Assembly (NCBI GenBank): GCA_903900335.1
Contig: CAIUMP010000056.1
Location: forward strand, 157,020 to 221,019
Direction: 5' to 3'
Length of the DNA stretch: 64,000 nucleotides
Source: an uncultured Ignavibacteriota bacterium
Lineage (GTDB): Bacteria > Bacteroidota > Ignavibacteria > Palsa-1295
Position 1 is the stretch's first letter. Each line of letters opens with the position of its first letter. The translations under genes were made by a program, and so were the position numbers. Below the pieces are notes generated by a model that had not been told where the DNA came from, did not search any database, and was given only the letters and a program-made list of their open reading frames with translations. Of the stretch, positions 14,982 through 36,100 are shown piece after piece.

Positions 14982-14986
14982 TCGGG

Positions 14987-17158: not shown

Positions 17159-17541
17159 GATTGGTTCTGTAAACCAATCACAATAATTGAAGTCCGGTGG
17201 GGTTAAAGCGATACTAAGCGCGGAGTGGGGACCGGGCTCGCCTTATCGGACGTTGCAAACTATGAGCTATGTATAAGACAAGTCCAGCGGCAGAATTAGT
17301 GCTAGTGAGCTTGTTACGAATGAAGATTTCGGAAGAATTATTAAGTTTCATAGCGACACCAGTCCGCCATTGTTCCACATCTGTACACTCACATTGCAAA
17401 GTGGAATCCTTCTGTGCCACAGGAGCGCCGGGGCGAGAGGTTATCAGACACAGTCCATCATCGAAGTGGGTCTGATCAAACTCTCAGAAAGTATCTCTAA
17501 CAGGGTTCTGAACTAATCGCACGCACTCGCCTTGCCTCGAT

Positions 17542-19653
17542 CTATCTACCCGCATTGATGATCGTGTATCCGATCCTGATTTTGTCAGAGGTAGTATAGT
17601 TGGATACGTTCGTGGTCGTAGGAATCATCCCGACTCGAATGTCGAACGAACCCGTCGTTCGATTATCCACATCGACAAAGTATGTCGCTTGTTTGCAATC
17701 GGGCGCGACACCGTCATCCGTTTTCGTGAGCACGCTGACGATCACAATACTCGTCGAGGAAGTGTAGCGGTTGTTGATGGTAAGCGTGCCTAGATTTTGA
17801 AAGACACCAGATGTTGGTGCTGCTGTGACGAGGTTACCAGTCGCACCAAGCGTGAGTTCGATCACGCCACTTGGTCCTTGTGCGGAGTATGCTGTCCCTG
17901 CTGTTGCTCCTTCGACGACCGTGCCGACACTCGGCGTCTCGGTTGTGCGGCCCATTGCAAACTCACCATCGTTGATTTGTAACGCAACGTTCGTTTGTCC
18001 CGCGGTTGTGTTTCCATTACCTGTCGCAAGCACGCCTATCGTTCCAGTGTTCGTCGCTCCTGTGTTAGAAGCGGATCCCCACAACCCAATGACTTGATTG
18101 GTCGAAGCCGCATTCGCGTTCCCATAGATCGCTGCAACCTCGTCAGTTGTACCGGTATAGACCGAGTGCAATTGATGAGAAGTCGTCGTCGTGTTGATCG
18201 CAACTTGACCTGTTGAAAGTATTCGGAGACGCTCAGTATTGTTCGTTCGAAAGACCAGCGGTTGTGCGTCCGAGGTACCGAGATAATTCGTAGCAGGGGC
18301 CGTCCCGGTGTTACCGAGGATCGTCCAATACAGGTTCGATGGTTGCACCCAACTCGGTGCACTACTTGCTCCGGTTGATGCTAGCACATACCCAGATGTC
18401 CCGGCGAGGTTATTCGGCATCAAAGCACCGGTGAATTTTACATTGCCCGAGACATCCAGCGCTTCAGTCGGAGTTGTCTGCCCAATTCCCAAACGTGTCG
18501 AACCCGTGGAGTGGTAGAAAACGATGCTGTTATCCTGTGTAACCGTTGCGCCGACACCAAAGACACAATCGTATGTACCGGATGCCGTGTTTGTGTTTCC
18601 TCCGAGGATCACGGAATAATCACCCGATGCCGAGTTAGAATACCCTCCGGCAACGATAGCATACATCCCGCACGCTCGATTATTCTTTCCCCCACTGACG
18701 ACCGAGTAATCTCCGCACGCATCATTTTGAAGTCCGCCAGCACAAACACTGTATGAGCCTGTTGCCGAGTCCTGCTGCCCGCCAGAGACCGTTGCACCAG
18801 AATCAGAAGCGAAGCTCTGATTTCCCCACGCGATGGAGAAGGCGCCGGATGCAGTGCTGTGATATCCACCAGCCATTCCATAATTGCCGGATGCCGTATT
18901 GCCTGTCCCGACTCCTTCAAGCGCATACAGTCCGCTGCCACGCCGCCACAACGTGTCAACACCACCACCACCCGACGTTCCAAATGATTTCCATTCCAGG
19001 TTACCGAATCCATCTGTGCAGAGAACCTGCGAACTCGTACCATCGGAGATCGGCAGTGTGTACGTCACATTTCCTGCCTGGACACCTGCTTTGAACCCTG
19101 TGTAATTCGTACCAGAAGAGGAAGGCTCGTAGAACCGTAACTCTTCGGCAGTGTTGTTGGAATTTATCAGGCCTACATTGCCTGCGGCGTACACTCGAAG
19201 TCGCTCTGTATTGTTAGTTCGGACCACAAAATCCTGCGAGTCTTTTGTACCAAGAAAATTGGTACTCGCCGTCGTTCCAGAATTCCCTGTTAACAACCAA
19301 CCGGAACCAAGGAACGGCACCCACGCTGAGCCGGTGTAATAATAGAATGTGGATGGATACGAGGAGCTGACCGAATCCGTACAGAAGACAAGTAATCCCG
19401 TTGCGGGTGTGGAGATCGCATTTCGTTGCGTCTGTGTCATGCGTGGAACCAGCAACCCGCGTGAAACACTGGTGAGGTCCAGGAGTGCGCTCGCATCCGG
19501 CGCTGTAGTGCCGATACCAACGTTACCTTGGGCAAACGCGGAATGTACACCGAACAGGTTGAGATTGAAAATGAAGACAATCGATGCTATCGCAATCGTG
19601 AATCGCATCGGATTCACCCGCCAAATCGCCTTGATGTTGAATAGATAATTCAT
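17542..19653 (-). CDS. large secreted repeat protein, paralog type 1 (copy C)
   Basis: It is near-collinear with copy A (QGNVGIGTTAPDASALLDLTSVSRGLLVPRMTQTQRNAISTPATGLLVFCTDS… to …YFVDVDNRTTGSFDIRVGMIPTTTNVSNYTTSDKIRIGYTIINAGR). The probable start is the internal Met at ~19608 (MRFTIAIASIVFIFNLNLFGVHSAFAQ). Confidence 0.75.
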   Translation of the reverse strand: MNYLFNIKAIWRVNPMRFTIAIASIVFIFNLNLFGVHSAFAQGNVGIGTTAPDASALLDLTSVSRGLLVPRMTQTQRNAISTPATGLLVFCTDSVSSSYPSTFYYYTGSAWVPFLGSGWLLTGNSGTTASTNFLGTKDSQDFVVRTNNTERLRVYAAGNVGLINSNNTAEELRFYEPSSSGTNYTGFKAGVQAGNVTYTLPISDGTSSQVLCTDGFGNLEWKSFGTSGGGGVDTLWRRGSGLYALEGVGTGNTASGNYGMAGGYHSTASGAFSIAWGNQSFASDSGATVSGGQQDSATGSYSVCAGGLQNDACGDYSVVSGGKNNRACGMYAIVAGGYSNSASGDYSVILGGNTNTASGTYDCVFGVGATVTQDNSIVFYHSTGSTRLGIGQTTPTEALDVSGNVKFTGALMPNNLAGTSGYVLASTGASSAPSWVQPSNLYWTILGNTGTAPATNYLGTSDAQPLVFRTNNTERLRILSTGQVAINTTTTSHQLHSVYTGTTDEVAAIYGNANAASTNQVIGLWGSASNTGATNTGTIGVLATGNGNTTAGQTNVALQINDGEFAMGRTTETPSVGTVVEGATAGTAYSAQGPSGVIELTLGATGNLVTAAPTSGVFQNLGTLTINNRYTSSTSIVIVSVLTKTDDGVAPDCKQATYFVDVDNRTTGSFDIRVGMIPTTTNVSNYTTSDKIRIGYTIINAGR

Positions 19654-19662
19654 GATGGATCG

Positions 19663-21756
19663 TCAGCGGCCAGGATTGAGAATGACATAGGCAAGTCGAA
19701 TATAATCGGATCCCTGATACGCGCTAAGATCCGTAACAAATGGGATCATGCCGATACGAAGTACACAGGAGCCAACCGAACGGCTATCGACATCCACCTT
19801 ATAGACCGAATTTTTGGGATCAGGCGAGCCCCCGCCATTCGTTTTCGCGACAATACCTGCAACGATAATGCTGCTCGCAGTAATGTAGCGGTTATTGATC
19901 GTCACGGTGCCCAAATTTTGAAAAACGCCGATTGTCGGGGCAACCGCGCTGAGATCCGTTTGTAACGAAAGCTGGATCACACCAGACGGCCCCTGTGCTG
20001 TGTACAGCGTCCCTGCAGTTGCTGACTCGAGCACAGTACCGACCGACGGTGTCTGAGTGGTGCGGCCCATCGTAAGCTCGCCTTGTGAGATTTGAGCCGC
20101 AGCGTTCGTCGTACCCGTGGTCGCATTTCCATTTCCGGTTGCAAGCACAGCAACCGTGCCCGTGTTCGTCGCTCCGGTGTTACCAACCCTTCCCCACGCC
20201 CCAATGGCTTGTGTCGCAGTCGAACCAGATGCGTTTCCATAGGCTCCCGCCGTTTCATCTGTTGTTGTTGTAATGATGGAAGAGAGTTGAGCCGTCGATA
20301 TGCTTGTATTGACCCCAATCTGACCGGCAGAAAGAATCCGACACCGAACGGAGGCGTTCGTTCGAACCACCAGATCTTGCGCGTCCGTCGTGCCGACAAA
20401 ATTGGTGGCCGGGTTCATCCCAGAAGTGCCCGTCAAACCCCAATTGTTAGAGGAGAACGTTGCTGAGCCCCATGTAGGCACAACGCCAGAGCCTGCAGAC
20501 AAGAGATATTGTCCACTTGAGCCTCCCGCATTGTTCGGCTTCAGCGAACCAGAGAATCGAAGGTTACCCGCAACATCGAGCATCTGCGAGGGAGCTTGCG
20601 TCCCAATTCCAAATCGAGTGGTGTTCGTCCCCGGCGTTTTGAAGACAATAAACTTCTGCGTACCGACCGAGATGCCAGAGCCATAGCACATCTCATAATT
20701 TCCACCGATCGAGTTTGTCGTTCCGCCAAGAATGGTGCAGTTTGTTGCGCTGATCGAATTCCCGTTGCCACCAAGGATAGCGGAATAATCTCCCTGCGGA
20801 GAATTTGATTTGCCACCGTTTGCATTCGTGGCGGTGGCCTGCACTGAGTTATTCTGCCCACCACCCGTGACATCGTCATTACCGGTTGAGGAATTCGAGC
20901 TACCCCCCGAAACGGTACCGGCTGTTCCGGAAACGGAAATGGAGTTACCGAACCCTATATCATAATTGCCCGTAACGCTTGAGCTAATACCCGCCGCGAT
21001 GGCATACGGCGCCGATGAACTATTACTGGCTCCAACACCATTCTCTCCTCCCGCCGCAGAGCCACGCGACCACAAAGTTGTTGATCCACCTCCACCAAAT
21101 GTGGAATAGATATGCCAGCTGAGGTTAGCTGTTCCATCCGTGATCATCGCAGCATTTGTCGTACCGTCCGCTGTTGGAAGGACATAGTGGACGTTGCCCG
21201 CTTGAGGACCGGCCTTTATGGCTGTGTAATATGTGCCAGAGCCAGATGGCTCATAAAAGAGAAGCCGCCCCGCTGTGTTTGTACTGTTGGTAAGACCGAT
21301 GTCGCCGGCACTGTAAAATCTCAACCGCTCTATGGCATTGGTCCTCTGCACGACATCAACAGCGTCTTTGCTGCCTAGAAAGTTGGTGGATGGGCTCGTG
21401 CCAGCATCACCTGTTAACGACCAACCACTGCCGACCATTGGGGTCCAATAAGACCCTGTGTAGTAGTAGAAATTGGTGTAGGTGCTGTCATAAACCAAGT
21501 CTCCGGTAGCAGGTGTGGTGATTGTCCGCATTTGCGCGTCGGTCATGCGCGGTATGAGAAGACCCATGGCTGTCGACCCAAGATGCAGGAGCGCTGAACT
21601 CGCCGCGCTGGTCGTGCCGATCGATACATTTTGCGCACGCAGATCGATAGTCCATACTCCTGGTGAAAGGAGTAGGATCAAAGCGATTCTGATGGCGACA
21701 CAGCGCCCAAGAAGCCGCCTTCTCTCCCGTGGGGAGGGCAGAAGGGTAGTGTTCAT
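19663..21756 (-). CDS. large secreted repeat protein, paralog type 2 (copy D)
   Basis: It is collinear with copy B (QNVSIGTTSAASSALLHLGSTAMGLLIPRMTDAQMRTITTPATGDLVYDSTYTNFYYYTGSYWTPMVGSGWSLTGDAGTSPSTNFLGSKD… to …YKVDVDSRSVGSCVLRIGMIPFVTDLSAYQGSDYIRLAYVILNPGR). Its stop lies 9 nt from the start of copy C. Confidence 0.75.
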   Translation of the reverse strand: MNTTLLPSPRERRRLLGRCVAIRIALILLLSPGVWTIDLRAQNVSIGTTSAASSALLHLGSTAMGLLIPRMTDAQMRTITTPATGDLVYDSTYTNFYYYTGSYWTPMVGSGWSLTGDAGTSPSTNFLGSKDAVDVVQRTNAIERLRFYSAGDIGLTNSTNTAGRLLFYEPSGSGTYYTAIKAGPQAGNVHYVLPTADGTTNAAMITDGTANLSWHIYSTFGGGGSTTLWSRGSAAGGENGVGASNSSSAPYAIAAGISSSVTGNYDIGFGNSISVSGTAGTVSGGSSNSSTGNDDVTGGGQNNSVQATATNANGGKSNSPQGDYSAILGGNGNSISATNCTILGGTTNSIGGNYEMCYGSGISVGTQKFIVFKTPGTNTTRFGIGTQAPSQMLDVAGNLRFSGSLKPNNAGGSSGQYLLSAGSGVVPTWGSATFSSNNWGLTGTSGMNPATNFVGTTDAQDLVVRTNASVRCRILSAGQIGVNTSISTAQLSSIITTTTDETAGAYGNASGSTATQAIGAWGRVGNTGATNTGTVAVLATGNGNATTGTTNAAAQISQGELTMGRTTQTPSVGTVLESATAGTLYTAQGPSGVIQLSLQTDLSAVAPTIGVFQNLGTVTINNRYITASSIIVAGIVAKTNGGGSPDPKNSVYKVDVDSRSVGSCVLRIGMIPFVTDLSAYQGSDYIRLAYVILNPGR

Positions 21757-22111
21757 TGTTGATTCCTTGGCAAACCGATCTCGAAACTTCTAGCCGGGCT
21801 TGGGAAAAGCATCGGAAATAGAAGTACGGGATTACGATAAGCAAATGGGGGGCGAATGAACGTTAGTTCTTAAGAACCGCTCATCCCTAAAGCAAACTAA
21901 TCCCCCTACGAAATAGCCATTCAAATATAGATCAACGGGGAGCAAAAGTCAAGCAATTCTGCAATAATTCTGCTGCCACTCCAAACAAAATATCTGTCTC
22001 CAGCCCTCGCAAACACTCGTCGCCCTATTATAGTACGATTAGGTTCTCAATATCAGACACAATTGACCACCAAAAACAGACAGCCATTCATTATGAAATG
22101 TGGGACGACGA

Positions 22112-23803
22112 CTACCTATTCACTACGAAACTCTCCCTCATTCTCATGCCGCCCGAAAGTAGTACCACGCTGTAGTTACCAGAGGCCAGATGTGAAGCAC
22201 TGTAGCTGATCGTATGAACCCCAGCCGCGAGATTTTCATCCACGAGCTTCTCCACCAATCTCCCACTGACGTCGTACAGCCCAGCCGAGACATAAGCGTC
22301 CGTTGGCATACCAAATTCAATGTGAGCTGTCTCAACGGCCGGATTTGGATAGATCGAAATCGTGAGCGAGCCAGGTATTGCCTTCTCGCTGTAGTCTACA
22401 GTTTGCGAAGCAGCATGCGTTCGGATCCCATTTCGGTCAATTTGATAGAGGTCGTACACGTACCGACCCGTTGCCAAATGTGCGTCGTCGGTTGTTTCAT
22501 AATTCGCACCCCACGGAGATTTTGCTTGCAATGCGGTATCGCTCTCGAAGCTCCTAATCAGCACGGGTGCAGCCACAGTTTCAGCATCCGTTAATGACAG
22601 GACGGGATGTCGCTCGATCTCGAATCCAAGGTTCTGAATTTCGCTATAAGTATTCCAGTTCAACTTAACCGTGTTACCCACTTGACGAGCTGTGAACTTA
22701 CCCATCTCAACCGGCAGAGAGTTGTCCGAAGTCGTTGAAGCTAGCGTGAATGGTCGGTTGATGATCGAGGTGCCATACTTAGCAGATACCACGGTTGCCG
22801 ATTCGATCCATCCTGAGTTGTACGTCGCACCGGGCGACAACGCGCTGACGCCGGCCGTCACCCACGCGGGGGTTGGTCCAGGTACAACAGGGGCAAGTGT
22901 ATCCCATCGGCCAACTACCAGGCCGGAAGGGGTTGGCATCCATGCAGGCACATAATCTCCCGGAATCCAATAAAGGCGTAGGATCGCATCAGCACCACCA
23001 GAGACGATGTCCGCGTGCCAGTATTGTATTGTGCTCACGGCCACAAGCGGCGTCTGGATGCTCGTGGTGTTCACATACTTGGAGCAGAAGTACTGAGTGC
23101 GATAGGTCGTCGCCGCAGAGCTTGAAGGGGTGATAGCACACGTGTTCCCACGGCTTGCCTTACCGACGGGAAACCAGAAGCGGTTCGTCGAATTCATGTC
23201 CTTCTCGCACGGCCCATCCACATAGCTGATCGCGGGCGAAACGGGAAGCCCAGCATTGTTGACCCAATTGCCATTCGTCGTGAAGTTCAGCACGTTGGTC
23301 TGTGTAGTGTAGCAAACGCCATTTGTGAAATAGCAATTGCTGTCAACGATCTCCTTCTGTGTCAGCGTCTTCGTCCCGCCATTAGTAAATTGCAGATCGT
23401 AGAAAGTCGTGACGACCGCCCCGCCCACGTTTTGATTCGATGCGCCATTGAGATTGACGGTCCCCGTCTTGCGAACGAACGTACCATCGTTCGTAAAATT
23501 GCCACCGATGTTGTACCACCCCGAGCCTCCGGCCGTTGCAGCGCTATTGTTCGTGAAGTCTGTGGTTATCGTTACCGTGCCAGAGTCGTCGATCGAGCCT
23601 GTTTGATTCTGATACGCACCGTTGACCTGCGTGTAAGAGCCGACCTTTGTGACGATGGTTGCTCCCTTGTTGATCATGAGCTGTGCATGTGCCGTGGACT
23701 CGGTTAGGGCGAGCATAGTAAGCAACGCAAAAACTGCCAAACGAGAAGCTCGTTCAGCACCACGAAAAACGTGGAGCGCATGCAATGAGAACATCGCCGG
23801 CAA
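22112..23803 (-). CDS. secreted protein with a T9SS C-terminal sorting domain
   Basis: It has a signal peptide (…RLAVFALLTMLALTESTAHAQ). The C-terminus …LTISIYPNPAVETAHIEFGMPTDAYVSAGLYDVSGRLVEKLV…GNYSVVLLSGGMRMRESFVVNR is a textbook Por_Secre_tail pattern. Its C-terminal half shares motifs (GFEIERH…YDLYQID) with the next gene. Confidence 0.65.
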   Translation of the reverse strand: MPAMFSLHALHVFRGAERASRLAVFALLTMLALTESTAHAQLMINKGATIVTKVGSYTQVNGAYQNQTGSIDDSGTVTITTDFTNNSAATAGGSGWYNIGGNFTNDGTFVRKTGTVNLNGASNQNVGGAVVTTFYDLQFTNGGTKTLTQKEIVDSNCYFTNGVCYTTQTNVLNFTTNGNWVNNAGLPVSPAISYVDGPCEKDMNSTNRFWFPVGKASRGNTCAITPSSSAATTYRTQYFCSKYVNTTSIQTPLVAVSTIQYWHADIVSGGADAILRLYWIPGDYVPAWMPTPSGLVVGRWDTLAPVVPGPTPAWVTAGVSALSPGATYNSGWIESATVVSAKYGTSIINRPFTLASTTSDNSLPVEMGKFTARQVGNTVKLNWNTYSEIQNLGFEIERHPVLSLTDAETVAAPVLIRSFESDTALQAKSPWGANYETTDDAHLATGRYVYDLYQIDRNGIRTHAASQTVDYSEKAIPGSLTISIYPNPAVETAHIEFGMPTDAYVSAGLYDVSGRLVEKLVDENLAAGVHTISYSASHLASGNYSVVLLSGGMRMRESFVVNR

Positions 23804-23997
23804 TCAGGCAAATACGTACGAGCACTTTCCTCAGGCACGCATGGCAAAATGCGTGTACACCTGGGCAATACTCTGGCGCCGGCTACATCAGGATTTTGGC
23901 AAAAACTGTGGGGATGAATCATCATCCCTGGTGGGCCGGCAAACTAAACTTGACAAAGCAACCGGGGGCGGCGAAGGAAAGTTCACGTGCCGGAAGC

Positions 23998-26025
23998 TCA
24001 CTCTCCGACCCATAGCTTCCGGCTTAACCGCCCGCCATTCCACTCTATCCGAACCCAATAGACACCGGGAAGCAGGCCGGGATTACAAGCGATCTGCTTT
24101 TCGAATTTCCGATCCAGGATCTGTCGACCAACGGCATCCGTTACGATCATTCGGGCGCTGGTGGTTGCCGTTCCGATAATGGACCCCTTTAGTATTCCCG
24201 CAAAATAATCAACTCTCCCTACCGAAGACGTAGCTGTATCCGAATTTGCAGATACGACCCTAGAACCGAGCAATGTGTGGACCCCGTCCCCGGACACCTC
24301 ATAAAGGTCATACTGGGATGTCCCGGCGGTGGGAGCATTGTCATTGAAACCGTATTCAGCACCATACCGCGAATGCCCAAGCAGGGCGCTATCCTGAAGG
24401 TAGCTAGCAATTAGTTTTTCTGAATCTGTACAATGCCGCTTGATCTCAAATCCTAGGAGATTCGATTCAGAGGCTGTTTGCCAGGAGATCCTCACCGCAT
24501 TCGTTATCCGTTGGGCGATAAGACTCTGGAGTTCAATGGGATTCGGGGAATCCGTATACCCTCCAGACAACATCCAATAAAATCCGCCACTGTCATTCGG
24601 AAATCCCAGACATGTTGTGTCCCAGGTGTAGGACAGACTTTGAGGCGATACGTTCGTAATACCGCTGAACGACCACGAGCGACCACGATTGCGCGAGCGC
24701 CAAAAATGCTGTTCGCCGGGATCGGCAGCATTAAGCTCTGTGCAGTGCAGCTGGAATGTCATCTCATTGGGATCCCCTTGTTGCGGACCAGCACCAGGCG
24801 TGATCTGAAAATATCGAAGAGCCGGATTGTTCTCCGGTTTTGCGCCCGGTGGCATATATCCGTTCGTACGGACGACACGTGTCCGCCCTAGATAAGGATT
24901 CGTCCCGCTCCGGATACTGAGACCCAGGCCGTAGAAATCGTCGGAAGGATTCGAGCCATCGAGCGTGCGAGCAAACTCCGAATAAACTCGGCCTATCAGA
25001 TGTCCGCCGCACGGCATACCTTCCTCAACCAGTCGGGTAAGAACATCGAGAGAGTCACACACACTATCAGAAATGAATCGAACGCTTAGCGTAGAACCGT
25101 TAGGAATGATCACTGTCCCGAGTTGTGATGGACCTGTCCAGTGACTTACGAATCCTGGATTTGATGCGCCATTGAATATCCAGTGATCCGTACCAAGCGA
25201 CTGCATTCCACATCCGCGCAACCCGGCCCCCGGCCCGCCTGATTCACCTTGATTTTCATTGATGACATCACCTGAGATTGTGATCACCTGCGGATCGTAT
25301 CCCCTCACTCCGCTGACTCTTGCGCTCGGAAGTATACTCGACCCAAACCCTATGCGAAGCGTGCCCCGAACACCAACCGGATTTGATCGAAATGATGCGT
25401 CAACATTTGTTAACGTGAGATTCCCGTAGGTGTGAGTGAGCAGATTATTCGCGAGGTAGGACACATCGATGAGGTCGGCGTTCGCAGAATAGTATTCGAA
25501 CGTGCTTTGAAGGTTGCACACAAAAAGCGGTGCGTGGAGTGAATCGAAGAGGCTATCAGCGACAACAGGCAGTAGTGCTTTGGTTCGAAAGAGCGCTCCA
25601 CTATCAAGTTCAATCATCCGCCTCTTTGAGAGCCTGTCACTGAAGACAAACCAACCCGACCCTGCATCAAGCGCGCCACGGATGCTGATTGCAGTATCCA
25701 CACTATTCGTATCTCCAACGAGATAGATGATATTCGTATCAACAGCGAGTCTTCCTTCCACAAATAGCTTCGCCAAAGGTGCTGTGGATGTATCGAGAAA
25801 AACTGAGTCTTGTTGAGAGATGATGACGGTGTCGCCAGCTTTGGGGATTATGCCATCTTGCCAAACGAGTGTGTCACTCCATTTGCCACTAGCGATGGTT
25901 CTGCGCTGCGCGAAGATATTGGATGCGAAGAGGGTACTCCCAAGTGTCAGGAGTATCGCTACGGAACAAAAAATCCTCTTGTAGTTGATTTCTCGCACGA
26001 GTAGGCAAACGAGTGCGAAGGGCAA
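23998..26025 (-). CDS. secreted protein, probable T9SS cargo
   Basis: It has a signal peptide (…FCSVAILLTLGSTLFASNIFAQ). It shares the 'LLGFEIKRH…YDLYEVSGDG' module with 22112..23803. The C-terminal …DAVGRQILDRKF…LPGVYWVRIEWNGGRLSRKLWVGE loosely fits a T9SS C-terminal domain. Confidence 0.5.
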   Translation of the reverse strand: MPFALVCLLVREINYKRIFCSVAILLTLGSTLFASNIFAQRRTIASGKWSDTLVWQDGIIPKAGDTVIISQQDSVFLDTSTAPLAKLFVEGRLAVDTNIIYLVGDTNSVDTAISIRGALDAGSGWFVFSDRLSKRRMIELDSGALFRTKALLPVVADSLFDSLHAPLFVCNLQSTFEYYSANADLIDVSYLANNLLTHTYGNLTLTNVDASFRSNPVGVRGTLRIGFGSSILPSARVSGVRGYDPQVITISGDVINENQGESGGPGAGLRGCGMQSLGTDHWIFNGASNPGFVSHWTGPSQLGTVIIPNGSTLSVRFISDSVCDSLDVLTRLVEEGMPCGGHLIGRVYSEFARTLDGSNPSDDFYGLGLSIRSGTNPYLGRTRVVRTNGYMPPGAKPENNPALRYFQITPGAGPQQGDPNEMTFQLHCTELNAADPGEQHFWRSRNRGRSWSFSGITNVSPQSLSYTWDTTCLGFPNDSGGFYWMLSGGYTDSPNPIELQSLIAQRITNAVRISWQTASESNLLGFEIKRHCTDSEKLIASYLQDSALLGHSRYGAEYGFNDNAPTAGTSQYDLYEVSGDGVHTLLGSRVVSANSDTATSSVGRVDYFAGILKGSIIGTATTSARMIVTDAVGRQILDRKFEKQIACNPGLLPGVYWVRIEWNGGRLSRKLWVGE

Positions 26026-26073: not shown

Positions 26074-27381
26074 CTACCGCCTGCCAATCCCGTAATAGGT
26101 AAACCCATACTCCCGCATGCGCTCGGGATCGTAGATATTGCGGCCATCGAAGACGACCTTATCTCGCAATTTCGACGAGATCGACTCAAAGTTCGGGTTG
26201 CGGAATTCATTCCACTCTGTAACCACGACAAGCGCGTCACTGTCTTCGAGCGCATCCATGTTCTTGCGGTAGTACTTCAAATTGGCACTCTCTGGTAGAA
26301 CCGTTTTCATTGGTGTGATCGCCGCAGGGTCACTTGCGTGAATGATGGCTCCGCGTGCTATGAGCCCAGTAATGATCTCTATCGCTGGTGCCTCACGAAT
26401 ATCATCTGTGCGTGGCTTAAAGGAGAGTCCCCAGACTGTGAATACCTTACCGGAAACATTGCCTTCGTAGTGGGCTAAGATCTTATCCAGCAGCTTTGTC
26501 TTTTGTCTGTCGTTGACATCCTGCACAGCACGGAGAATGGAGAAATCATGACCAAACTCGGCCGCGGTCGAAATAAGCGCCTTGATGTCCTTCGGGAAGC
26601 AACTTCCACCGAATCCAACACCAGGAAAGAGAAACTGCGGACCGATGCGTCCATCCGAACCAATACCTACGCGCACACTATCGACATCGGCGCCGACGAG
26701 ATCGCAGAGATTTGCAATCTCATTCATAAAACTGATCTTCGTTGCGAGCATCGAGTTCGCAGCATACTTCGTGAGCTCCGAACTGCGCTCGTCCATGATG
26801 AAGATCGGATTTCCTGTGCGAACGAACGGCTCATACAGCTCCTTCATCGTCTCGATCGCACCCGCATCACGCGAGCCAACCACGATGCGATCCGGCTTCA
26901 TAAAATCCTGAACGGCAGCGCCTTCTTTGAGAAATTCCGGATTGGATACGACCTGAACCGGGATCTTCGTCTCCGCTTCGAAAATGGCTCGAACACGGTC
27001 CGCCGTACCAACCGGCACCGTGGATTTATTGACAACAACCTTCGGCGTCGTCATGATCTTGGCGATCTGCTTCGAGGTTTCGAGGACCATTGAGAGATCA
27101 GCAGCGCCATCCATGCCGGGTGGAGTGGGCAAGGCCAGGAAGATCACTTCAGCGCTATCAACGGCCTCTTTGAGATCGAGCGTAAAACGAAGGCGTCCCT
27201 CGGCAACGTTGAACTTCACGATCTCTTCCAGACCTGGCTCGAAAATTGGGATGATACCCTTTCGAAGATTTTCGATCTTCTCGGGCACAATATCCATGCA
27301 GAGGACCTGATTCCCCGTTTCGGCAAATCCGGCTCCGGTAACGAGACCTACGTAGCCTGTTCCAATAATTGCTATGTTCAC
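26074..27381 (-). CDS. ugd: UDP-glucose 6-dehydrogenase (nucleotide-sugar dehydrogenase family)
   Basis: The N-terminal Rossmann motif is MNIAIIGTGYVGLVTGAGFAETG. The catalytic-region motif GGSCFPKDI and the 435-aa length are typical of Ugd and relatives. Confidence 0.8.
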   Translation of the reverse strand: MNIAIIGTGYVGLVTGAGFAETGNQVLCMDIVPEKIENLRKGIIPIFEPGLEEIVKFNVAEGRLRFTLDLKEAVDSAEVIFLALPTPPGMDGAADLSMVLETSKQIAKIMTTPKVVVNKSTVPVGTADRVRAIFEAETKIPVQVVSNPEFLKEGAAVQDFMKPDRIVVGSRDAGAIETMKELYEPFVRTGNPIFIMDERSSELTKYAANSMLATKISFMNEIANLCDLVGADVDSVRVGIGSDGRIGPQFLFPGVGFGGSCFPKDIKALISTAAEFGHDFSILRAVQDVNDRQKTKLLDKILAHYEGNVSGKVFTVWGLSFKPRTDDIREAPAIEIITGLIARGAIIHASDPAAITPMKTVLPESANLKYYRKNMDALEDSDALVVVTEWNEFRNPNFESISSKLRDKVVFDGRNIYDPERMREYGFTYYGIGRR

Positions 27382-27543
27382 GCTGTGGCTTAAAAAGAGG
27401 TTTTGATTCGTTGAGTCACGCAGCTTAGAAGTTGCGAGTACGAGCCCTGTAAAACATCACGAACGAAGTATTGCTCCCCGTTAGGTGCCCGTCAGTCAAG
27501 ATTCATGAGCATTCAGAATTCTCCACGCGCTTCTCTTCTATGC

Positions 27544-27782
27544 TTCTTTTTAAATAGAGATTTAAATACTAATAATTGATTTAAAGGGTGTGGACATGTG
27601 GAGAACACAAACCTCGTTCACGAATCACCGTGATAGACCGCATCTCGCTTCGCGTTCACATCTTATCCATCTGTTGGCTAACATGTGGCTAACTGGTGTT
27701 AGACGAACAGTCCACATATCCCTCCACAGTCTTCCTGTGGTCTGGCTTCCTCTATCCACAGCTTGTGATTTCTTATCCAGAC
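27544..27782. other. predicted chromosomal replication origin (oriC): AT-rich DNA-unwinding element plus a DnaA-box cluster
   Basis: A ~43-nt AT-rich stretch (ttctttttaaatagagatttaaatactaataattgatttaaag) lies in an otherwise GC-rich genome. It is followed within ~200 nt by at least 5 sites with 8/9 match to TTATCCACA in either orientation. These are tgtggagaa, TTATCCATC at 27663, tgtggctaa at 27685, CTATCCACA at 27752 and TTATCCAGA at 27772. Weaker sites lie among them. The region is ~120 nt from the duplicated dnaA 3' end. Confidence 0.6.
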
Positions 27783-27842
27783 GTTAGTGAGGAAAGGTTT
27801 TTGAAGTGGCGAGTTATCATGCAGAGTATGGTATAACTATTT

Positions 27843-27875
27843 AAAACTAAAAAGCCGCGGTACTCCAGCGGCTTT
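27843..27875 (-). terminator. intrinsic terminator (minus strand), probably the original dnaA terminator
   Basis: The minus strand reads AAAGCCGC-tggagtacc-GCGGCTTT followed by TTAGTTTTAAA. This is an 8-bp GC-rich stem with a 9-nt loop and a T-rich tail. It lies immediately downstream of the dnaA 3'-end duplicate at 27902..28023. Confidence 0.55.
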
Positions 27876-27901
27876 CGTTAGGTATTCGAGCTGTTATTGT
27901 G

Positions 27902-28023
27902 TCACTGCATCATATCAAACTGCCTCCGCAGCTCATCTATCTTCGTCAGCAGCGCCGGGTTGTGCTTCATGTCGTCGAGCACGGTTTGCACGGCGTGGAT
28001 GACGGTGGATTGGTCGCGTCCGC
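27902..28023 (-). pseudogene. duplicated 3' end of dnaA (last ~40 codons plus stop), copy 1 of a ~120-nt diverged direct repeat
   Basis: Its minus-strand translation …SGRDQSTVIHAVQTVLDDMKHNPALLTKIDELRRQFDMMQ* is identical over the last 36 residues to the true dnaA C-terminus at 28767... There are ~8 nucleotide differences versus copy 2 (28764..28885). There is no upstream gene body, and it abuts the stop of the DUF5615 gene. Confidence 0.65.
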
Positions 28024-28359
28024 TCAAATGAACTCAACCCTTCCCCTCATCTCCTCCACCGAATTGTTGCCATGAACGGATGCGCATTCCATGATGATTG
28101 CGCCGAGAGAATGTCCTTCCTGTTTGCAGTAGATTAAGCCGGGATGATCCGGGTTGCGAGAGGCGATGCGGAGGAAATCGTCATCGTGGGTAATGAGCAC
28201 ACGGCCTTCTCTCGTTGCATATTCCCACTGTTTCTCATCTGGCGTACCTCGCAGTTTGACTGCTTTAGAAACAGTAATATCAATTCCCATCGCTTCGAGT
28301 GCTTTGGCGATTCGGGAATTTACACTCTCATCCAGGTGGAATCGAATCTTCTCGCTCAT
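28024..28359 (-). CDS. DUF5615-family (PIN-like, toxin-like) protein
   Basis: The 111-aa product is MSEKIRFHLDESVNSRIAKALEAMGIDITV…VLITHDDDFLRIASRNPDHPGLIYCKQ…. This is the typical partner of DUF433 proteins. It is AT-rich relative to the flanks. Confidence 0.6.
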   Translation of the reverse strand: MSEKIRFHLDESVNSRIAKALEAMGIDITVSKAVKLRGTPDEKQWEYATREGRVLITHDDDFLRIASRNPDHPGLIYCKQEGHSLGAIIMECASVHGNNSVEEMRGRVEFI

Positions 28360-28364
28360 GCGAC

Positions 28365-28661
28365 TTACGCAACGTATTTCCGATTGTCGGTTGCTTCGTA
28401 CTGCTTCCGGAATTCTGCAACAAAGCGAGCATCATCATCTATACCCTGATCTATCTCGGTCTTATGATCGTAATAGTATGTCATGGCAGCATAGACATCG
28501 GCGAGAGATAAGTCGAAATCGCCCGCGATGAGTTCAAGCTCCATTCCATTGCGCAGGTGTTTGATCACAACATCTTTCACAGTGATTCGTGTACCGGCAA
28601 TGCGAGGTCGTCCAAAGGCGATCTCCTTGTCGGTGACAATATGTTGCAGCGATGATTGCAT
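28365..28661 (-). CDS. DUF433-domain protein (antitoxin-like partner of DUF5615)
   Basis: The Met-initiated product (ATG at 28661) is MQSSLQHIVTDKEIAFGRPRIAGTRITVKDVVIKHLRNGMELELIAGDFDLSLADVYAAMTYYYDH…, which carries the DUF433 signature. It lies 5 nt upstream of the DUF5615 gene. The longer track ORF start (28739) runs into the dnaA repeat. Confidence 0.65.
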   Translation of the reverse strand: MQSSLQHIVTDKEIAFGRPRIAGTRITVKDVVIKHLRNGMELELIAGDFDLSLADVYAAMTYYYDHKTEIDQGIDDDARFVAEFRKQYEATDNRKYVA

Positions 28662-28763
28662 GTAATTGTAACGCCCTCGTGTAACGGAAAGTTTTGGCTT
28701 AACGTAATGTCGAGCGAGGACGCTCGACCTACAATTCACAAGAAGCAGTCGGCTCGTGATTCG

Positions 28764-28885
28764 ATCTCACTGCATCATATCAAACTGCCTCCGCAACTCA
28801 TCGATCTTCGTGAGCAGCGCCGGGTTGTGCTTCATGTCGTCGAGGACGGTTTGCACGGCGTGGATGACGGTGGAGTGATCGCGGC
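28764..28885. repeat. copy 2 of the ~120-nt dnaA-3' direct repeat (this copy is the functional end of dnaA)
   Basis: tcactgcatcatatcaaactgcctccgca[a/g]ctcatc[g/t]atcttcgt[g/c]agcagcgccgggttgtgcttcatgtcgtcgag[g/c]acggtttgcacggcgtggatgacggtgga… matches 27902..28023. Both copies start exactly at the dnaA stop codon. Confidence 0.65.
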
Positions 28886-30629
28886 CACCGAAGTGAATAC
28901 CGATGGTCTTGAGCGAGTTGTTGGTCAGCTCCTTCGCGAGGAACATGGCCACCTGCCGGGCTTCCACTACTTCCTGCTTGCGCGTCTTGGCGCGAAGCAG
29001 ATCTTCTTCAATGCCAAACTTGCGCGAGACGGTCCGCTGTATCGTTTCGATAGTTAGGATCGGCGCCGAGCGTTTCGCAACCTTACGGAGCACTTCCTTT
29101 GCTATCTCCAGTGTCGGTGCGTTGCCCTCAAGCGATGCTGTGGCCAACAGAGAGATCAGGCATCCTTCGAGTTCGCGGATGTTCGTCGTGATGTTCGTCG
29201 CGATGAATTCGATCACGTCGCTGGAAAGCTCGATGCCGTCGGAGATGGCTTTGTGACGGAGAATTGCAATACGCGTTTCTAAGTCCGGTGCGCCGATGTC
29301 TGCTGTTAGGCCCCACTGCAAGCGGTTCAGTAGGCGGTCGTCAATGTCCTTCAGCTCTTTCGGTGCGCGGTCGCAGGTCAGAATTATCTGCTTGCCAAGT
29401 TCGCGAAGCGCATTGAACGTGTGGAAGAAAATATCCTGCGTCTTCTCCTTGCCGGCAAAGAACTGCACGTCATCAATGATGAGGACATCAATAGAGCGAT
29501 AGAGACTCTGGAATTCATTGATCCGGTCGTTCTGAATGGCATCCACGAATTCGACAGTGAATCTGTCGCTGGATGTATAAAGGACTCTGGCTCCGGAGAA
29601 CTTCTGCAGCACGGCATTTCCCACTGCCTGGATCACGTGTGTTTTTCCGAGACCCACATTGCCGTAGATTACCAGCGGATTGTAGCGCGTTCCACCAGGA
29701 TTATTTGCAACTGCCATCGCTGCAGCATAGGCAAGCTTGTTCGATTCACCTCGGATGAAGGTGTCGAAGGTGTATCGCGGATTCAGATTGGGCTCGATCG
29801 GCTGGCGCTTTTGCTGGGAGGCGGAAGCGCCATTCTGCTGTGGCTGCTGCGGTACAGCGCGTGATGCGAACGGCGAAGGTATCGCAGGCGCATAGGGCGA
29901 AGGCTGCGAACCAAACGAAGGAGAGTTGAATGGCTGCGCACCCGTGCGTTGTGAATGATGCGGCGAAGAAGCGAGAACGTTTGTCGGTCGTTCAGTCACG
30001 ACCGGAGCAGCAGATGGAACCGGCACAACTGGCGAAGGCGCGGCCTCCAGTTTCGTGTTCACCGATTGGATCTCGCTCGCGCTATCAAAGCGGAACTGGG
30101 CGGCGGCACCAAGAACATCCTGCAGTGCCTTTTCGAGTAACGACTGGTAATGCTCGGTGATCCACTCGCAGAAGAAATTGCTGGGCACACGAAGCGTGAT
30201 CTCCGAGCCTTCCAAGGCCGTGGCTTCCAGCGGTTCGAACCACGTGCGCATCGTCTGCGCGCTGAGTTGAGGGCGAATAAGCTCCAGGCATCGCTTCCAG
30301 ATCCGTTCGGCAGCAAGGCGCAAGTCAGATGTCGATCGATCGCTTTCCGCGACGACCGACGATTCCTCTTTTCCAGTCAAAGGGCTGGGCCTCTGCAGTT
30401 CACTTTCCACGTTGCTTTCTTCAGGCTCGAACATCGCGCCGGTCTTTGGTATGGCATTCGTTGTGCGATGCCCAATGCGATTGCCACTCGAACGACTGAG
30501 CGCAGGGCTTGGTGCAAGCGATTGCTCCATTCCTCGTCCGCTCAGGCGTGTTATCGGCGACTCTGCGATTTCAATTTCAAGTTCGGAGAACTCTGTTCTC
30601 GTCATAATTTCTGACAAACGGAAGAACAC
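28767..30629 (-). CDS. dnaA: chromosomal replication initiator DnaA
   Basis: It has the AAA+ Walker A motif GNVGLGKTHV, the box VII/sensor regions, and the C-terminal DNA-binding domain …VVEARQVAMFLAKELTNNSLKTIGIHFGGRDHSTVIHAV…. The N-terminal domain I (ERIWKRCLELIRPQL…) begins ~100 aa after the first ATG. The true start may be an internal Met (aa 9, 34 or 66). A long Pro/Gln-rich domain II linker is present. Confidence 0.9.
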   Translation of the reverse strand: MFFRLSEIMTRTEFSELEIEIAESPITRLSGRGMEQSLAPSPALSRSSGNRIGHRTTNAIPKTGAMFEPEESNVESELQRPSPLTGKEESSVVAESDRSTSDLRLAAERIWKRCLELIRPQLSAQTMRTWFEPLEATALEGSEITLRVPSNFFCEWITEHYQSLLEKALQDVLGAAAQFRFDSASEIQSVNTKLEAAPSPVVPVPSAAPVVTERPTNVLASSPHHSQRTGAQPFNSPSFGSQPSPYAPAIPSPFASRAVPQQPQQNGASASQQKRQPIEPNLNPRYTFDTFIRGESNKLAYAAAMAVANNPGGTRYNPLVIYGNVGLGKTHVIQAVGNAVLQKFSGARVLYTSSDRFTVEFVDAIQNDRINEFQSLYRSIDVLIIDDVQFFAGKEKTQDIFFHTFNALRELGKQIILTCDRAPKELKDIDDRLLNRLQWGLTADIGAPDLETRIAILRHKAISDGIELSSDVIEFIATNITTNIRELEGCLISLLATASLEGNAPTLEIAKEVLRKVAKRSAPILTIETIQRTVSRKFGIEEDLLRAKTRKQEVVEARQVAMFLAKELTNNSLKTIGIHFGGRDHSTVIHAVQTVLDDMKHNPALLTKIDELRRQFDMMQ

Positions 30630-30929
30630 CCGCCGTGACGAGTCACGTTCGGTGGTAAAAAATACGATTCAGGTTTCAGGACAACAGTGCGCATGCTCAG
30701 TGTTCGCGGATCGTGATCCCAGAAAGTGTGGTGGCGATGATCGCATTCATGCGCGCCAGCTCTGCTTTCCTTTCGCCGCGAATTCCGAGGTTTCGCTTCG
30801 TCACAAAGATGCACACACCGTGGGCTAACTACTACACCTAGCGTACGTGTTCGTTATGCATTAAAAGCACAACGGTAGTTCAAAACATTTTGGATTACGT
30901 TCCAGGTCGCGAAGTAGAATCAAAATTAC

Positions 30930-30938
30930 TTATCCACA
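30930..30938 (+). promoter_or_regulatory. perfect DnaA box (TTATCCACA) in the dnaA upstream region
   Basis: It is an exact 9/9 consensus match ~300 nt upstream of the dnaA start, consistent with dnaA autoregulation and/or a second box cluster. Confidence 0.5.
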
Positions 30939-31072
30939 TTCTGCAAACAGGATTTCTCATCGCACTCGTGTTGCAGTATAACACATTCCAAATTCGAAAG
31001 CAAGAGCTAAAGTGAAATTTTTGTATGGAATATTTTCGCATAGCGCGAACGGAAATTGCAACTCGTGAAAAT

Positions 31073-33180: not shown

Positions 33181-36100
33181 TTGCCTCAAGAACTCTATCA
33201 CGAACTGCTATCGCGACTCGCGCGGCTCCGGCATCGCCGGGAGTCGGTCGCGCTGTGGAGTGGAGTTTGCAATGGGATGGCTTCGGCGCTCGTCATCTCG
33301 CTCGGCGCGATTCTCGCGGAAATGATCGGCCATCTCTCGATCGATGGACGAACCTGGCTTTTCTGGATTGCATTCCTCTTGTCCCTCGGTGCGATTGGCG
33401 GCTTCGCTGTTCCACCACTGCTTGTCCGACTCGGAATCCGTCCGCGAGCGACGGATGACGAACTTGCTTCTTCGGTCGGGCACCACTTCCCTATCGTTAG
33501 CGACCGACTTGTTAACACGCTTCAACTAACGCGGCCGCTCTTCGCGGAGTCCAGCACCTTGATCGGCTCGCCCGCCTTTGCGATGGCTGCGTTTCAGAGC
33601 GCCTACTCATCGGTTCGCGATGTAGATTTCAACGCGATCGTCGAGGAGCGCCCAGTCAAGCGTTCTGCGCTGATCTTCTTCTTCAGCCTTATGCTTGGGC
33701 TTGCACTCTTCGTCAGTGCAAAGGAGGAAATGCTCGGGGCATCGGGTCGCCTGATACATCACCGTACGTTCTACCAGAAGCCAGCGCCCTTTACGTTCGT
33801 TGTCTCGCCAGGAGACAAGCGCGTAATGCGCGGTGACTCCGTTCGCCTCGTGATCGTGACCCGCGGGGAGCAGCTTCCCCAGATCCATATCCGATTGCGC
33901 GAAGAAGGACAGAAGGACTTCGATGTGCTGACTGTCGCCAGTTCTCCGATGGATTCCTCCTTCACTCGACAAGGCTTTCATTCTGGCTTTGTCTATACCA
34001 TCCACGCGCAGCACCCGGTCGAGTACTTTGCGGAATCGCGGGAGATCGAGTCCGATCATTTCAGGATCTCCGTGTTGGATCATCCCATCGTCCGGTCGTT
34101 GAACGTCGAAGTTGAACCGCCTGCTTACACGCACCAGAAGTCATCGAAGCTTTCGGAGAACATCGGCGATGTTGCTGGAGTCGCAGGGACGAAAGGCGTC
34201 TTCCGAGTGGTGGCCTCATCGCCGCTGATGAAGGCGACGCTTGTCTTCAGCACCACGGACACGGCCGGACATCACTCAGATTCCGCAAAATCTACGTACT
34301 CCTACCCACTCACGATTTCGGACTCCATCGCCACAGGTGCGGTCGGTTTCATGCGCTCGGGCAGTTATCATATTGACCTTCTCGACCGCGACTCCGTTGC
34401 CAGTGAGCACCCCATCGAATACACGGTCACCGTCACAAAAGACGAGCCGCCTCAGATCGTCATCATTGAACCAGGTGGACATGCCGAGCTGCCGAGCGAC
34501 ATGCGTCTCGATATGCTCGCTCGCATTCATGATGATTTCGGATTCCGCGGCGTGCGGCTCGGCTACAAGCTAACGCATTCGAAATACTTGCCGCCAGACA
34601 CGGGATTCAAGTGGATGACAGTGCCACTTTCGAATTACAACGCGCAAGATCTGGATGTGCCCTACATCTGGAACATGACACCGCTCTCCATCGGCCCTGA
34701 AGATGAGATGACCTATCTCATGGAAGTAACGGATAATGATGCGGTCACCGGGCCAAAGTCGACACGGACACCCGAGTTCACTGTGCGTGTGCCCTCCGTT
34801 CAGGAAATCTTCAAGCGCGCCGATGAAGAGGCGAATAAAGCGCAGGAGAACATGAACGCCATCAAGCAGGATGCGCAGGAGTTACAGAAGAAAGTCAACG
34901 AGGCGCTGAATGAAATGCGCCAGATGAAGTCCTCTGACATTGCAAAAGGCTCCCAGGATTTCTCCAAGCAGAAGGACATGCAGCAAATGCTCGAGCGGCA
35001 GAAGCAGCTGAACGACCGCATCGATCAAGTCGCGAAAGACCTGCAGCAGATGACCCATGCCATGGAGCAGCAGAATGTGCTCTCACCAGAGACGATGCAG
35101 AAGTATCAGGAGTTGCAGGAGCTCTTCAAGCAAATTGATTCTCCAGAGCTGAAGAAGGCGATGGACGATCTGCAAAAGGCGATGCAGAAGAACATCGACC
35201 CCAAAAAGCTGCAGGACGCCATGCAGAACATGAAGCAGAACGAGGAGAACTTCCGTAAGTCCATCGAGCGCACCGCCAATATCCTGAAGAAGATCCAGGC
35301 GGAGCAGAAGATTGACGAACTGATGAAATCCGCGAGCCAACTTGCAAAGCAAGAGCAGCAGTCTGCCGATAGCGCTCACTCCCGCATGGATCAAGGTAAG
35401 CCGCCAACGCAGGATCAGAAGGCCGCCGAGGCACGCAAGCAACAGGATGCACAGAAGGAGCTCGACCGCATGCGCGAGGTCATGAAGGATGTCGCGGAGC
35501 AGATGAAGAAGCTGCCGGAGAAGATGCAGTCACCGCAGGAGATGAAGGCCGCAGTTGAGGCACTCGCCGATCCTTCTGCTGATAAGGACATGCAGATGGC
35601 AGAAGATGCAGCGCAAAAGGGCGACGAGCAGCGTGCCGCGCAGAACGCACAGTCCGCAGCGAAGAAGATGAAGGACGCGCAAAAGAAGCTCGCGGATCTT
35701 AAGAAGAAGATGTCTGAAAGCGAGAAGGCACGGACCATCCGCGAGATGAAGCAGCTGCGCGACGAACTCAATCGTTTGTCAAAAGAGGAAGAAGCGATCA
35801 AGACCAAAGCGCACGATGCCGCGCAGAACTCCAACGTCTTCCGCGACTTAGCAGAGCAGCAATCGCAGAAGAAGGACCAACTAGGTCAAACGGCTTCGAA
35901 AGCGATGCAGCTCGCGCAGAAATCCACCAAGGTGACTCCGGAAATGGGCCGCCAGATGGGTAAGGCCTTCGGCGAGATGCAGAAAGGCGAAGAGGCGATG
36001 ACCGAGCGCAACCAGCAGGGTGCTGAGCAAAGTTCGCAGGCCGCGATGACGGCACTCAACAAAGCATCTCAGGAAATGCAGCAAGCGATGCAGGCCATGC

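Follow-up and report, generated by a model that had tools for sequence, protein, structure and literature searches.

The sequence that we analysed, referred to here as the window, is a continuous stretch of 64,000 nt that carries the initiator gene dnaA. On its minus strand, from high to low coordinates, lie anmK (31073 to ~32230), dnaA (28767-30605), a toxin-antitoxin gene pair, an orphan copy of the 3' end of dnaA, a terminator, a cluster of DnaA boxes with an AT-rich block, and ugd (26074-27381). The box cluster and the AT-rich block together occupy 27517-27830, between the terminator of dnaA and ugd. The DnaA protein shares 67-73% identity with those of metagenome-assembled genomes (MAGs) that carry the label Kapaibacterium or uncultured Bacteroidetes, and reaches 80% with that of one partial metagenomic contig. 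The host is an uncultured Candidatus Kapaibacterium-like bacterium (Bacteroidota). The preliminary description of this locus had predicted a chromosomal replication origin (oriC) next to dnaA in a GC-rich genome; with a G+C content of ~53%, the genome is GC-rich only to a moderate degree.

The dnaA gene encodes a protein with matches to the Pfam families DnaA_N, Bac_DnaA and Bac_DnaA_C. Its start was placed at the conserved MTRTEFS, in agreement with the gene call in locus L162. Domain IV could be aligned with those of E. coli (1J1V, a complex of domain IV with DNA) and B. subtilis (8BTG), including FGGRDHSTVIHA, and RDHSTVIHA was conserved. As this domain IV is canonical, DnaA boxes of the E. 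coli type are its expected ligand. At 612 aa the protein is unusually long: an extension of ~100 aa, counted from MTRTEFS, precedes domain I, and there is a long linker rich in P, Q and S. The extension before domain I is common to the relatives. We also noted that the codons for TVIHA, the DNA-reading motif, form a box-like 9-mer, TCATCCACG (7/9 matches), in both copies of the dnaA 3' end, and that the TVIHA codons of dnaA in L005 (at 7304) likewise form a box-like 9-mer, TTATCCACG (8/9). The 3' end of dnaA thus carries a weak box beside the putative origin.

The 3' end of dnaA is duplicated, as had been described earlier. The orphan copy (27902-28032, minus strand; the last ~120-131 nt of the gene) is 92% identical to 28767-28897, and the two 131-nt copies bracket an insert at 28024-28766. 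The insert encodes, on the minus strand, a DUF433 antitoxin (28365-28661) and a DUF5615/PIN-like toxin (28024-28359), both recognised by Pfam. Over 120 aligned nt the two dnaA 3' copies differ at seven positions; six of the seven differences are synonymous and the seventh is a third-position change. If about one-quarter of random changes are taken to be synonymous, at least six of seven would be expected with a P near 0.001 by rough estimate. This pattern implies that the copies diverged while both were coding, in different lineages, and that one of them came with the insert. The substitutions therefore indicate that one dnaA 3' copy is foreign and was acquired by recombination, and not by an in-place duplication followed by decay. 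The toxin-antitoxin pair came from outside and now parts dnaA from the origin. The arrangement is not an assembly artefact, since it recurs, with the same toxin-antitoxin gene calls, in two independent ENA assemblies that match each other at 100% across 12.3 kb.

A donor of the toxin-antitoxin pair together with a dnaA 3' end was not found among the closest toxin homologues; these (73-78% identical) lie between an epimerase gene and serS, and not at dnaA. We also considered an integron cassette, as GTTAAGC and an 8-bp hairpin were seen by eye between dnaA and the antitoxin gene. This was rejected, as neither a matching inverse core site nor an attC following the toxin gene was found. A scan of the 64-kb window for tRNA and tmRNA genes found none, so the window has no tRNA-type integration site, and an Rfam scan of 20-36 kb matched no RNA family. 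In L081 (5558-9500) we observed an Mrr-like ORF, a dissimilar-looking DUF5615/DUF433-like pair in the opposite orientation (both by eye) and a gene for a secreted protein of 655 aa. Of these, only the 655-aa protein has a homologue (657 aa) in L084 (2840-5314). The stretch that separates dnaA from the origin core thus resembles a hotspot of insertion and has repeatedly gained accessory genes, toxin-antitoxin pairs among them. The arrival of one such pair with a foreign copy of the dnaA 3' end is a small example of recombination beside an essential locus.

Beyond the orphan dnaA copy lies a predicted intrinsic terminator of the original dnaA transcript (27840-27877, minus strand), a GC-rich hairpin followed by UUUUUAGUUUU, which would separate the origin from dnaA. 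A similar hairpin with a T-tract follows dnaA in L002 and L099. Between the end of the box cluster and the stop codon in the orphan dnaA copy there are 120 nt, in line with the ~120 nt given in the preliminary description.

We scored DnaA boxes as matches to the consensus TTATCCACA. Four boxes with 8/9 matches and three with 7/9 were observed in 27519-27781, spread over ~260 nt of non-coding DNA. The 8/9 boxes are TTCTCCACA (27597-27605, minus strand), TTAGCCACA (27684-27692, minus; its CCAC(A/T) core is kept in the alignment with relatives), CTATCCACA (27752-27760, plus) and TTATCCAGA (27773-27781, plus); a GTGT-GGA-like block of the relatives aligns with the last two (27752-27781). Among the 7/9 boxes, ATGTCCACA (27589-27597, minus) overlaps TTCTCCACA by 1 nt, and the two form a tandem pair in an 8-nt register. 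The second, TTATCCATC (27663-27671, plus), belongs to the conserved block GGATAAnnTGTGA (see below), and the third, TTCTCCACG (27519-27527, plus), is the distal box, whose 3' end faces the AT-rich block from the ugd side. The 3' ends of the tandem boxes (27589-27605) face the same block across a short GC cluster. None of the cluster boxes is a perfect match to the consensus, which counts against an origin. Five 8/9 boxes had been counted earlier in 27544-27782; the number is four, with two 7/9 boxes. The occurrence of boxes in both orientations was borne out, and the limits needed correction: the unit reaches left to ~27517 and includes the inverted box beyond the AT-rich block.

Matches of 8/9 or better are not in overall excess in the 64 kb (12 observed, 9.8 expected); what is unusual is that four of them lie within 185 nt. 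In first-order Markov simulations, four 8/9 boxes within 200 nt never appeared (0/1000), three appeared in 4/1000, and seven matches of at least 7/9 within 300 nt appeared in 3/1000. Two other features of this segment were set aside. A 65-aa ORF over the boxes (27590-27787, plus strand) has no Pfam match, and the relatives carry non-triplet indels there, so we regard it as non-coding. A 22-nt inverted repeat, 86% complementary, between 27616-27637 and the antitoxin gene (28573-28594) is probably due to chance, as its arm at the origin is not kept in the relatives; by rough estimate, ~0.02 such repeats would be expected by chance in the 4.2 kb that were searched.

The AT-rich block, the proposed DNA unwinding element, occupies 27544-27586. 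This 43-nt segment, AT-rich as had been reported, is 86% A+T and is the most AT-rich 43-mer of the 64 kb; the runner-up has 74%, and only a fraction of 3e-5 of all 43-nt segments reaches 86%. Nearest-neighbour energies place the least stable 40-nt and 60-nt duplexes of the 64 kb at the same position. The most AT-rich 43-mer of the whole locus lies directly 3' of the tandem boxes in six of seven relatives also. Between the proximal box and the AT-rich DNA is a GC cluster of 3 nt, GGG (27586-27588; CCC in the dnaA sense), which reads (G/C)CC in eight of the nine loci, after ACAT.TCCAC(A). On the other side, between the distal box and the AT-rich block, there is a pyrimidine-rich tract (27528-27543; purine-rich in the dnaA sense), whose composition is kept in the alignment with relatives.

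The preliminary description had named a lack of conservation of the box cluster at the dnaA locus of relatives as a refuting result. Eight further Kapabacteria-like loci were found to have the box cluster with its AT-rich block in the syntenic position. A core of ~150 nt is kept in the window and in L002, L003, L004, L083, L084, L085, L099 and L081, where it is cut by the end of the locus. In these eight Kapabacteria loci DnaA is 67-80% identical to that of the window, and the spacer flanking the core is unalignable. In every locus having the core motif, the core lies downstream of dnaA and on the dnaA-sense strand. The order anmK-dnaA-spacer-ugd recurs in L002, L003 and L004, and ugd is also downstream of dnaA in L084 and L099.

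Read in the dnaA sense, the core consists of GGATAAnnTGTGAA, ~45 variable nt, the tandem boxes, (G/C)CC, the AT-rich block, the purine-rich tract and the inverted box. In the GGATAAnnTGTGAA block, the TTATCC half of a box is kept and the CACA half is not. The ACAT.TCCAC of the tandem boxes is invariant or nearly so across the nine loci. The inverted (distal) box, GTG(T/G)G(A/G)(A/G)GAA in the dnaA sense, is kept in seven of eight relatives. Eight species have both this box and the tandem pair, and in each of them the two are 60-61 nt apart. The conserved block GGATAAnnTGTGA occurs once in the window (27656-27668, minus strand) and is exact in 6 of 160 loci, all from Kapabacteria and all at the syntenic site; L004 and L084 have it with one mismatch or indel. 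An nhmmer profile of the core gave a single match in the window (27517-27668), and L081, held out of the profile, was recovered at E=8e-15.

L001, from a complete chromosome and with a DnaA 68% identical to that of the window, has no core downstream of dnaA and has a different downstream gene, which counts against the origin reading. The core profile gave no significant match in L001 or in the more distant Ignavibacteria/Bacteroidota loci. In the latter, box clusters tend to be upstream of dnaA.

In nine species we also scored DnaA-trios to either side of the AT-rich block, with box and trios assigned to strands as in B. subtilis. The basal unwinding system (BUS) consists of a DnaA box, a spacer of up to 16 bp and at least three DnaA-trios (PMC8287927), and we accordingly looked for three or more NAN trios, which read NTN on the strand of the box, no farther than 16 bp from a box having at most two mismatches (PMC8287927). 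The window formally passes with TTA TTA GTA TTT at a spacer of 13, a result also obtained in 11% of shuffles of the same 60 nt (P=0.11). L002 has CTA TTA TTA CTA CTA at a spacer of 4, and L003 and L085 fell short of the definition (n=1). For the distal box, the tract at 27528-27543 may provide trio-like NTN repeats in certain species (six in L002) and not in all. On this scoring, DnaA-trios do not appear to be conserved in the clade and are clear only in L002. Trios define the best-understood unwinding module, and the absence of above-chance trios counts against an oriC. The succession of tandem boxes and a short GC-rich motif before the unwinding region is a feature of the BUS that is present here; the 1-nt overlap of the boxes is atypical.

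The position of the GC-skew minimum had been set beforehand as a refuting test of the origin prediction. The cumulative G-C curve of the 64-kb window is V-shaped, with its trough at 27.7-28.8 kb. Overlapping contigs from the same organism, 100% identical in the overlaps, lengthened the sequence by 7 kb on the left and by 9.6 kb on the right, to 80.6 kb in all, and left the minimum where it was; it is a local minimum, in a genome of several Mb. In 5-kb bins the skew is negative in five of six on the left and positive in seven of nine on the right. For the minus-strand genes taken alone, the plus-strand skew is -0.031 to the left of the site and +0.029 to the right, with the flip of sign between ugd (-0.083) and dnaA (+0.047). 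Since genes on one and the same strand differ in the sign of their skew on the two sides, the coding strand is not the cause of the switch. The amplitude is small (~+/-0.03) and there is a second dip at 68-73 kb, which count against an oriC. In all seven relatives for which both sides are available, the skew is <=0 before the core and >0 after it. With arms this short, and with the same orthologue next after the core in each relative, the support is weak.

All long ORFs between 9415 and 27381 are on the minus strand, as had been reported. The argument from strand bias that had been built on this run is sound for the left arm and does not extend to the right arm, where the minus strand again carries 10 of 16 long ORFs, which are thus not co-directional with a rightward fork; this counts against an origin. 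The genes gidA/mnmG and trmE/mnmE, classic genes of origin regions, lie ~45 kb to the right of the site. A search for parS (TGTTNCACGTGAAACA, up to three mismatches) gave no matches above chance.

Upstream of dnaA, the anmK-dnaA intergenic region (30606-31072) has one perfect DnaA box (30930-30938, plus strand; ~325 nt upstream of the dnaA start) and one 7/9 match. The perfect box is where it had been described. The 'second box' of that description exists as a lone conserved box at promoter-like sequence and not as part of a second cluster, which a bipartite origin needs and which was not found in 30606-31072. It recurs in the same orientation, in the context TGTTTGnAGAATGTGGATAA, in L001-L004, L083 and L085, and directly follows a conserved TGTTTGnAGAA; in some species it overlaps TAnnTTTG-like promoter elements, a promoter type of the Bacteroidetes. 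From this context, the box at 30930 is probably an autoregulatory site for dnaA transcription, and possibly a distal origin box. The intergenic region as the main origin was rejected, as it has one good box and no extreme AT-rich block. We also observed a 29-nt element, CCGAACGTGACTCGTCACGGCGGGTGTTC (30624-30652, minus strand), with the palindrome GTGACTCGTCAC, ending 19 nt upstream of the dnaA ATG. L001 and L083 share it in their nucleotide sequence, and translations of ORFs suggest its presence in L081 and L084. This element may be an operator or a leader element.

Taken together, the region 27517-27830 shows the features of a DnaA-dependent oriC: a box cluster, a flanking AT-rich element, cognate initiator and indicator genes, and conservation in relatives. 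The clustering of the boxes, the extreme of A+T content, the local skew minimum and the syntenic conservation support the origin predicted earlier, and both refuting tests named beforehand, GC skew (over the sequence covered) and conservation, favoured it. We consider it very likely, from these sequence features, that chromosome replication starts at 27517-27830, as the whole oriC or at least as the half that unwinds. We infer DnaA binding, melting of the AT-rich block and helicase loading as follows. ATP-DnaA, through its canonical domain IV, would occupy the 8/9 and 7/9 boxes over ~260 nt. The overlapping boxes at 27589-27605 would direct DnaA toward the 43-nt AT-rich block across the 3-nt GC cluster, and ATP-DnaA extending from these tandem boxes would melt 27544-27586. 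Across the block, at 60-61 nt, the conserved inverted box may be the anchor of another DnaA assembly. Helicases would then be loaded and forks would leave both ways. A more specific layout for Kapabacteria, distinct from the module of box and trios, in which the unwinding element is clamped at an invariant 60-61 bp by convergent boxes (the overlapping tandem pair and, opposite to it, the inverted box), the conserved non-box motif GGATAAnnTGTGAA serves a second factor and DnaA assembles inward, one assembly per strand, is a speculation to which we give little weight. If true, such a convergent clamp could place both helicases symmetrically without conserved DnaA-trios.

We considered whether the origin could be bipartite, with the downstream cluster as its unwinding half, comparable to incC of B. 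subtilis or oriC2 of H. pylori, and the box at 30930 as a working distal half that loops to it through DnaA. This reading would refine the best explanation and not replace it. Six relatives keep the upstream perfect box with the same position, orientation and context, L001 among them although it lacks the downstream core, and in B. subtilis a single distal box acts over hundreds of bp, in either orientation, by a loop (PMC6669920). However, upstream of dnaA there are only one good box and one 7/9 match, with no AT-rich block comparable to that downstream. A perfect box is lacking on the upstream side of dnaA in L081 and L084, the box at 30930 is now ~3.3 kb from the unwinding element, and its TGTTTGnAGAA and TAnnTTTG-like context fits simple autoregulation. 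We regard a bipartite origin as rather unlikely.

The origin might also lie elsewhere, and the present site be a locus of DnaA-binding control: titration or inactivation as at datA, reactivation as at DARS, or a DnaA-regulated promoter/terminator region of ugd and dnaA. Model bacteria do have DnaA-box clusters that are not part of oriC, the sequence examined covers ~80 kb, and L001 has a dnaA without an adjoining core. A control locus, however, has no need for the least stable duplex of the region, for the polarity of an R1-type box or for a fixed span of 60-61 nt, and it would not coincide with a flip in GC skew that is independent of the coding strand; we find this explanation improbable. 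Still less can be said for a chance build-up of box-like 9-mers in an AT-rich intergenic promoter region, with no DnaA-related function. The window-wide number of 8/9 boxes (12 against 9.8) agrees with it, but the local clustering of four such boxes was never reproduced in the 1000 simulations, and boxes and spacing are kept among relatives whose DnaA is 67-80% identical while the neighbouring spacer is unalignable. Chance is thus a very remote explanation.

As an origin, the site can be compared with those of model bacteria. In E. coli the R1 box points at the AT-rich unwinding element. As in E. coli oriC, the boxes here are of the TTATCCACA type and the proximal box faces the AT-rich unwinding element across a GC-rich spacer. 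Unlike E. coli oriC, which lies between gidA and mioC, the site is beside dnaA, and it has no 13-mer repeats, no GATC clusters and no sign of IHF-dependent left and right halves. The loci datA and DARS of E. coli are likewise clusters of DnaA boxes in non-coding DNA; to our knowledge, these have no adjoining extreme AT-rich element in R1 polarity and are not at a GC-skew switch, whereas the present site has both the AT-rich element and the switch.

The arrangement is also similar to that of B. subtilis. The succession from a proximal box through a GC-rich motif to the unwinding region has been described for the origins of B. subtilis and H. pylori (PMC8235120), and the unwinding region is downstream of dnaA, as in the incC/BUS of B. 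subtilis (PMC8287927, PMC6669920, PMC8235120). As with boxes 6 and 7 of that bacterium, the 3' ends of an adjacent pair of boxes point toward the unwinding region, and a short GC motif stands between the pair and the AT-rich DNA. More boxes are present upstream of this proximal pair, and box DNA is also found on the opposite side of dnaA. The differences are that the neighbouring gene here is ugd, whereas the B. subtilis unwinding region is in the dnaA-dnaN spacer; that the proximal boxes overlap by 1 nt, whereas those of B. subtilis are separated by up to 3 bp; that 5'-CTA-3' trios are clear only in L002; and that the upstream side of dnaA has one box and no cluster. Here, moreover, a conserved inverted box closes the far side of the AT-rich block at a fixed 60-61 nt; B. 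subtilis is not known to have such a box. The H. pylori origin (oriC1-dnaA-oriC2) also has its unwinding element downstream of dnaA, after two adjacent boxes and a GC motif, and boxes upstream (PMC8235120). Unlike the present locus, it has four boxes in oriC1, against one upstream of dnaA here, and a functional DnaA-trio, which is not demonstrable here; the box consensus of the present locus is of the E. coli type, matching the canonical domain IV.

A search of the literature on Kapabacteria or Kapaibacterium and oriC found no description of an origin, none of the top-ranked papers mentioning either name, and the papers that combine Bacteroidetes, oriC and DoriC include, by their titles and abstracts, none on an origin like the present one. 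The site is very probably an ordinary DnaA-dependent origin and not a new kind. The current understanding stands. A well-anchored origin for the uncultured Kapabacteria would help to orient and circularise MAGs, and would be of use in origin comparisons and in coverage-based estimates of growth rate, for which the position of the origin is required. The alignment of the clade also provides cases on the generality of DnaA-trios, with a fixed convergent span of 60-61 nt, overlapping proximal boxes and no conserved trios.

The arms that adjoin the site have some features of their own. A long run of secreted-protein genes, tandem paralogues of ~560-780 aa, extends over 12843-26025 (minus strand) of the window and over 1-9670 of L171, and several of these have a Por_Secre_tail signal (type IX secretion) or G8 or BNR/Sortilin-like matches. 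The tandem paralogues occupy most of the left replication arm adjoining the origin. To the right, at 33181-36804 (plus strand), there is an ORF of 1207 aa, rich in K, E, Q and A and of low complexity, which has a coiled-coil-like look and a local AT skew of up to 0.33. Farther right, shortly past the end of the window, L169 (16124-18605; ~68-70 kb in window coordinates) carries a HEPN/nucleotidyltransferase pair and a TIR-domain gene beside a TPR protein, followed by gidA and trmE. The HEPN/nucleotidyltransferase pair and the TIR-domain gene are probably defence or toxin-antitoxin genes.
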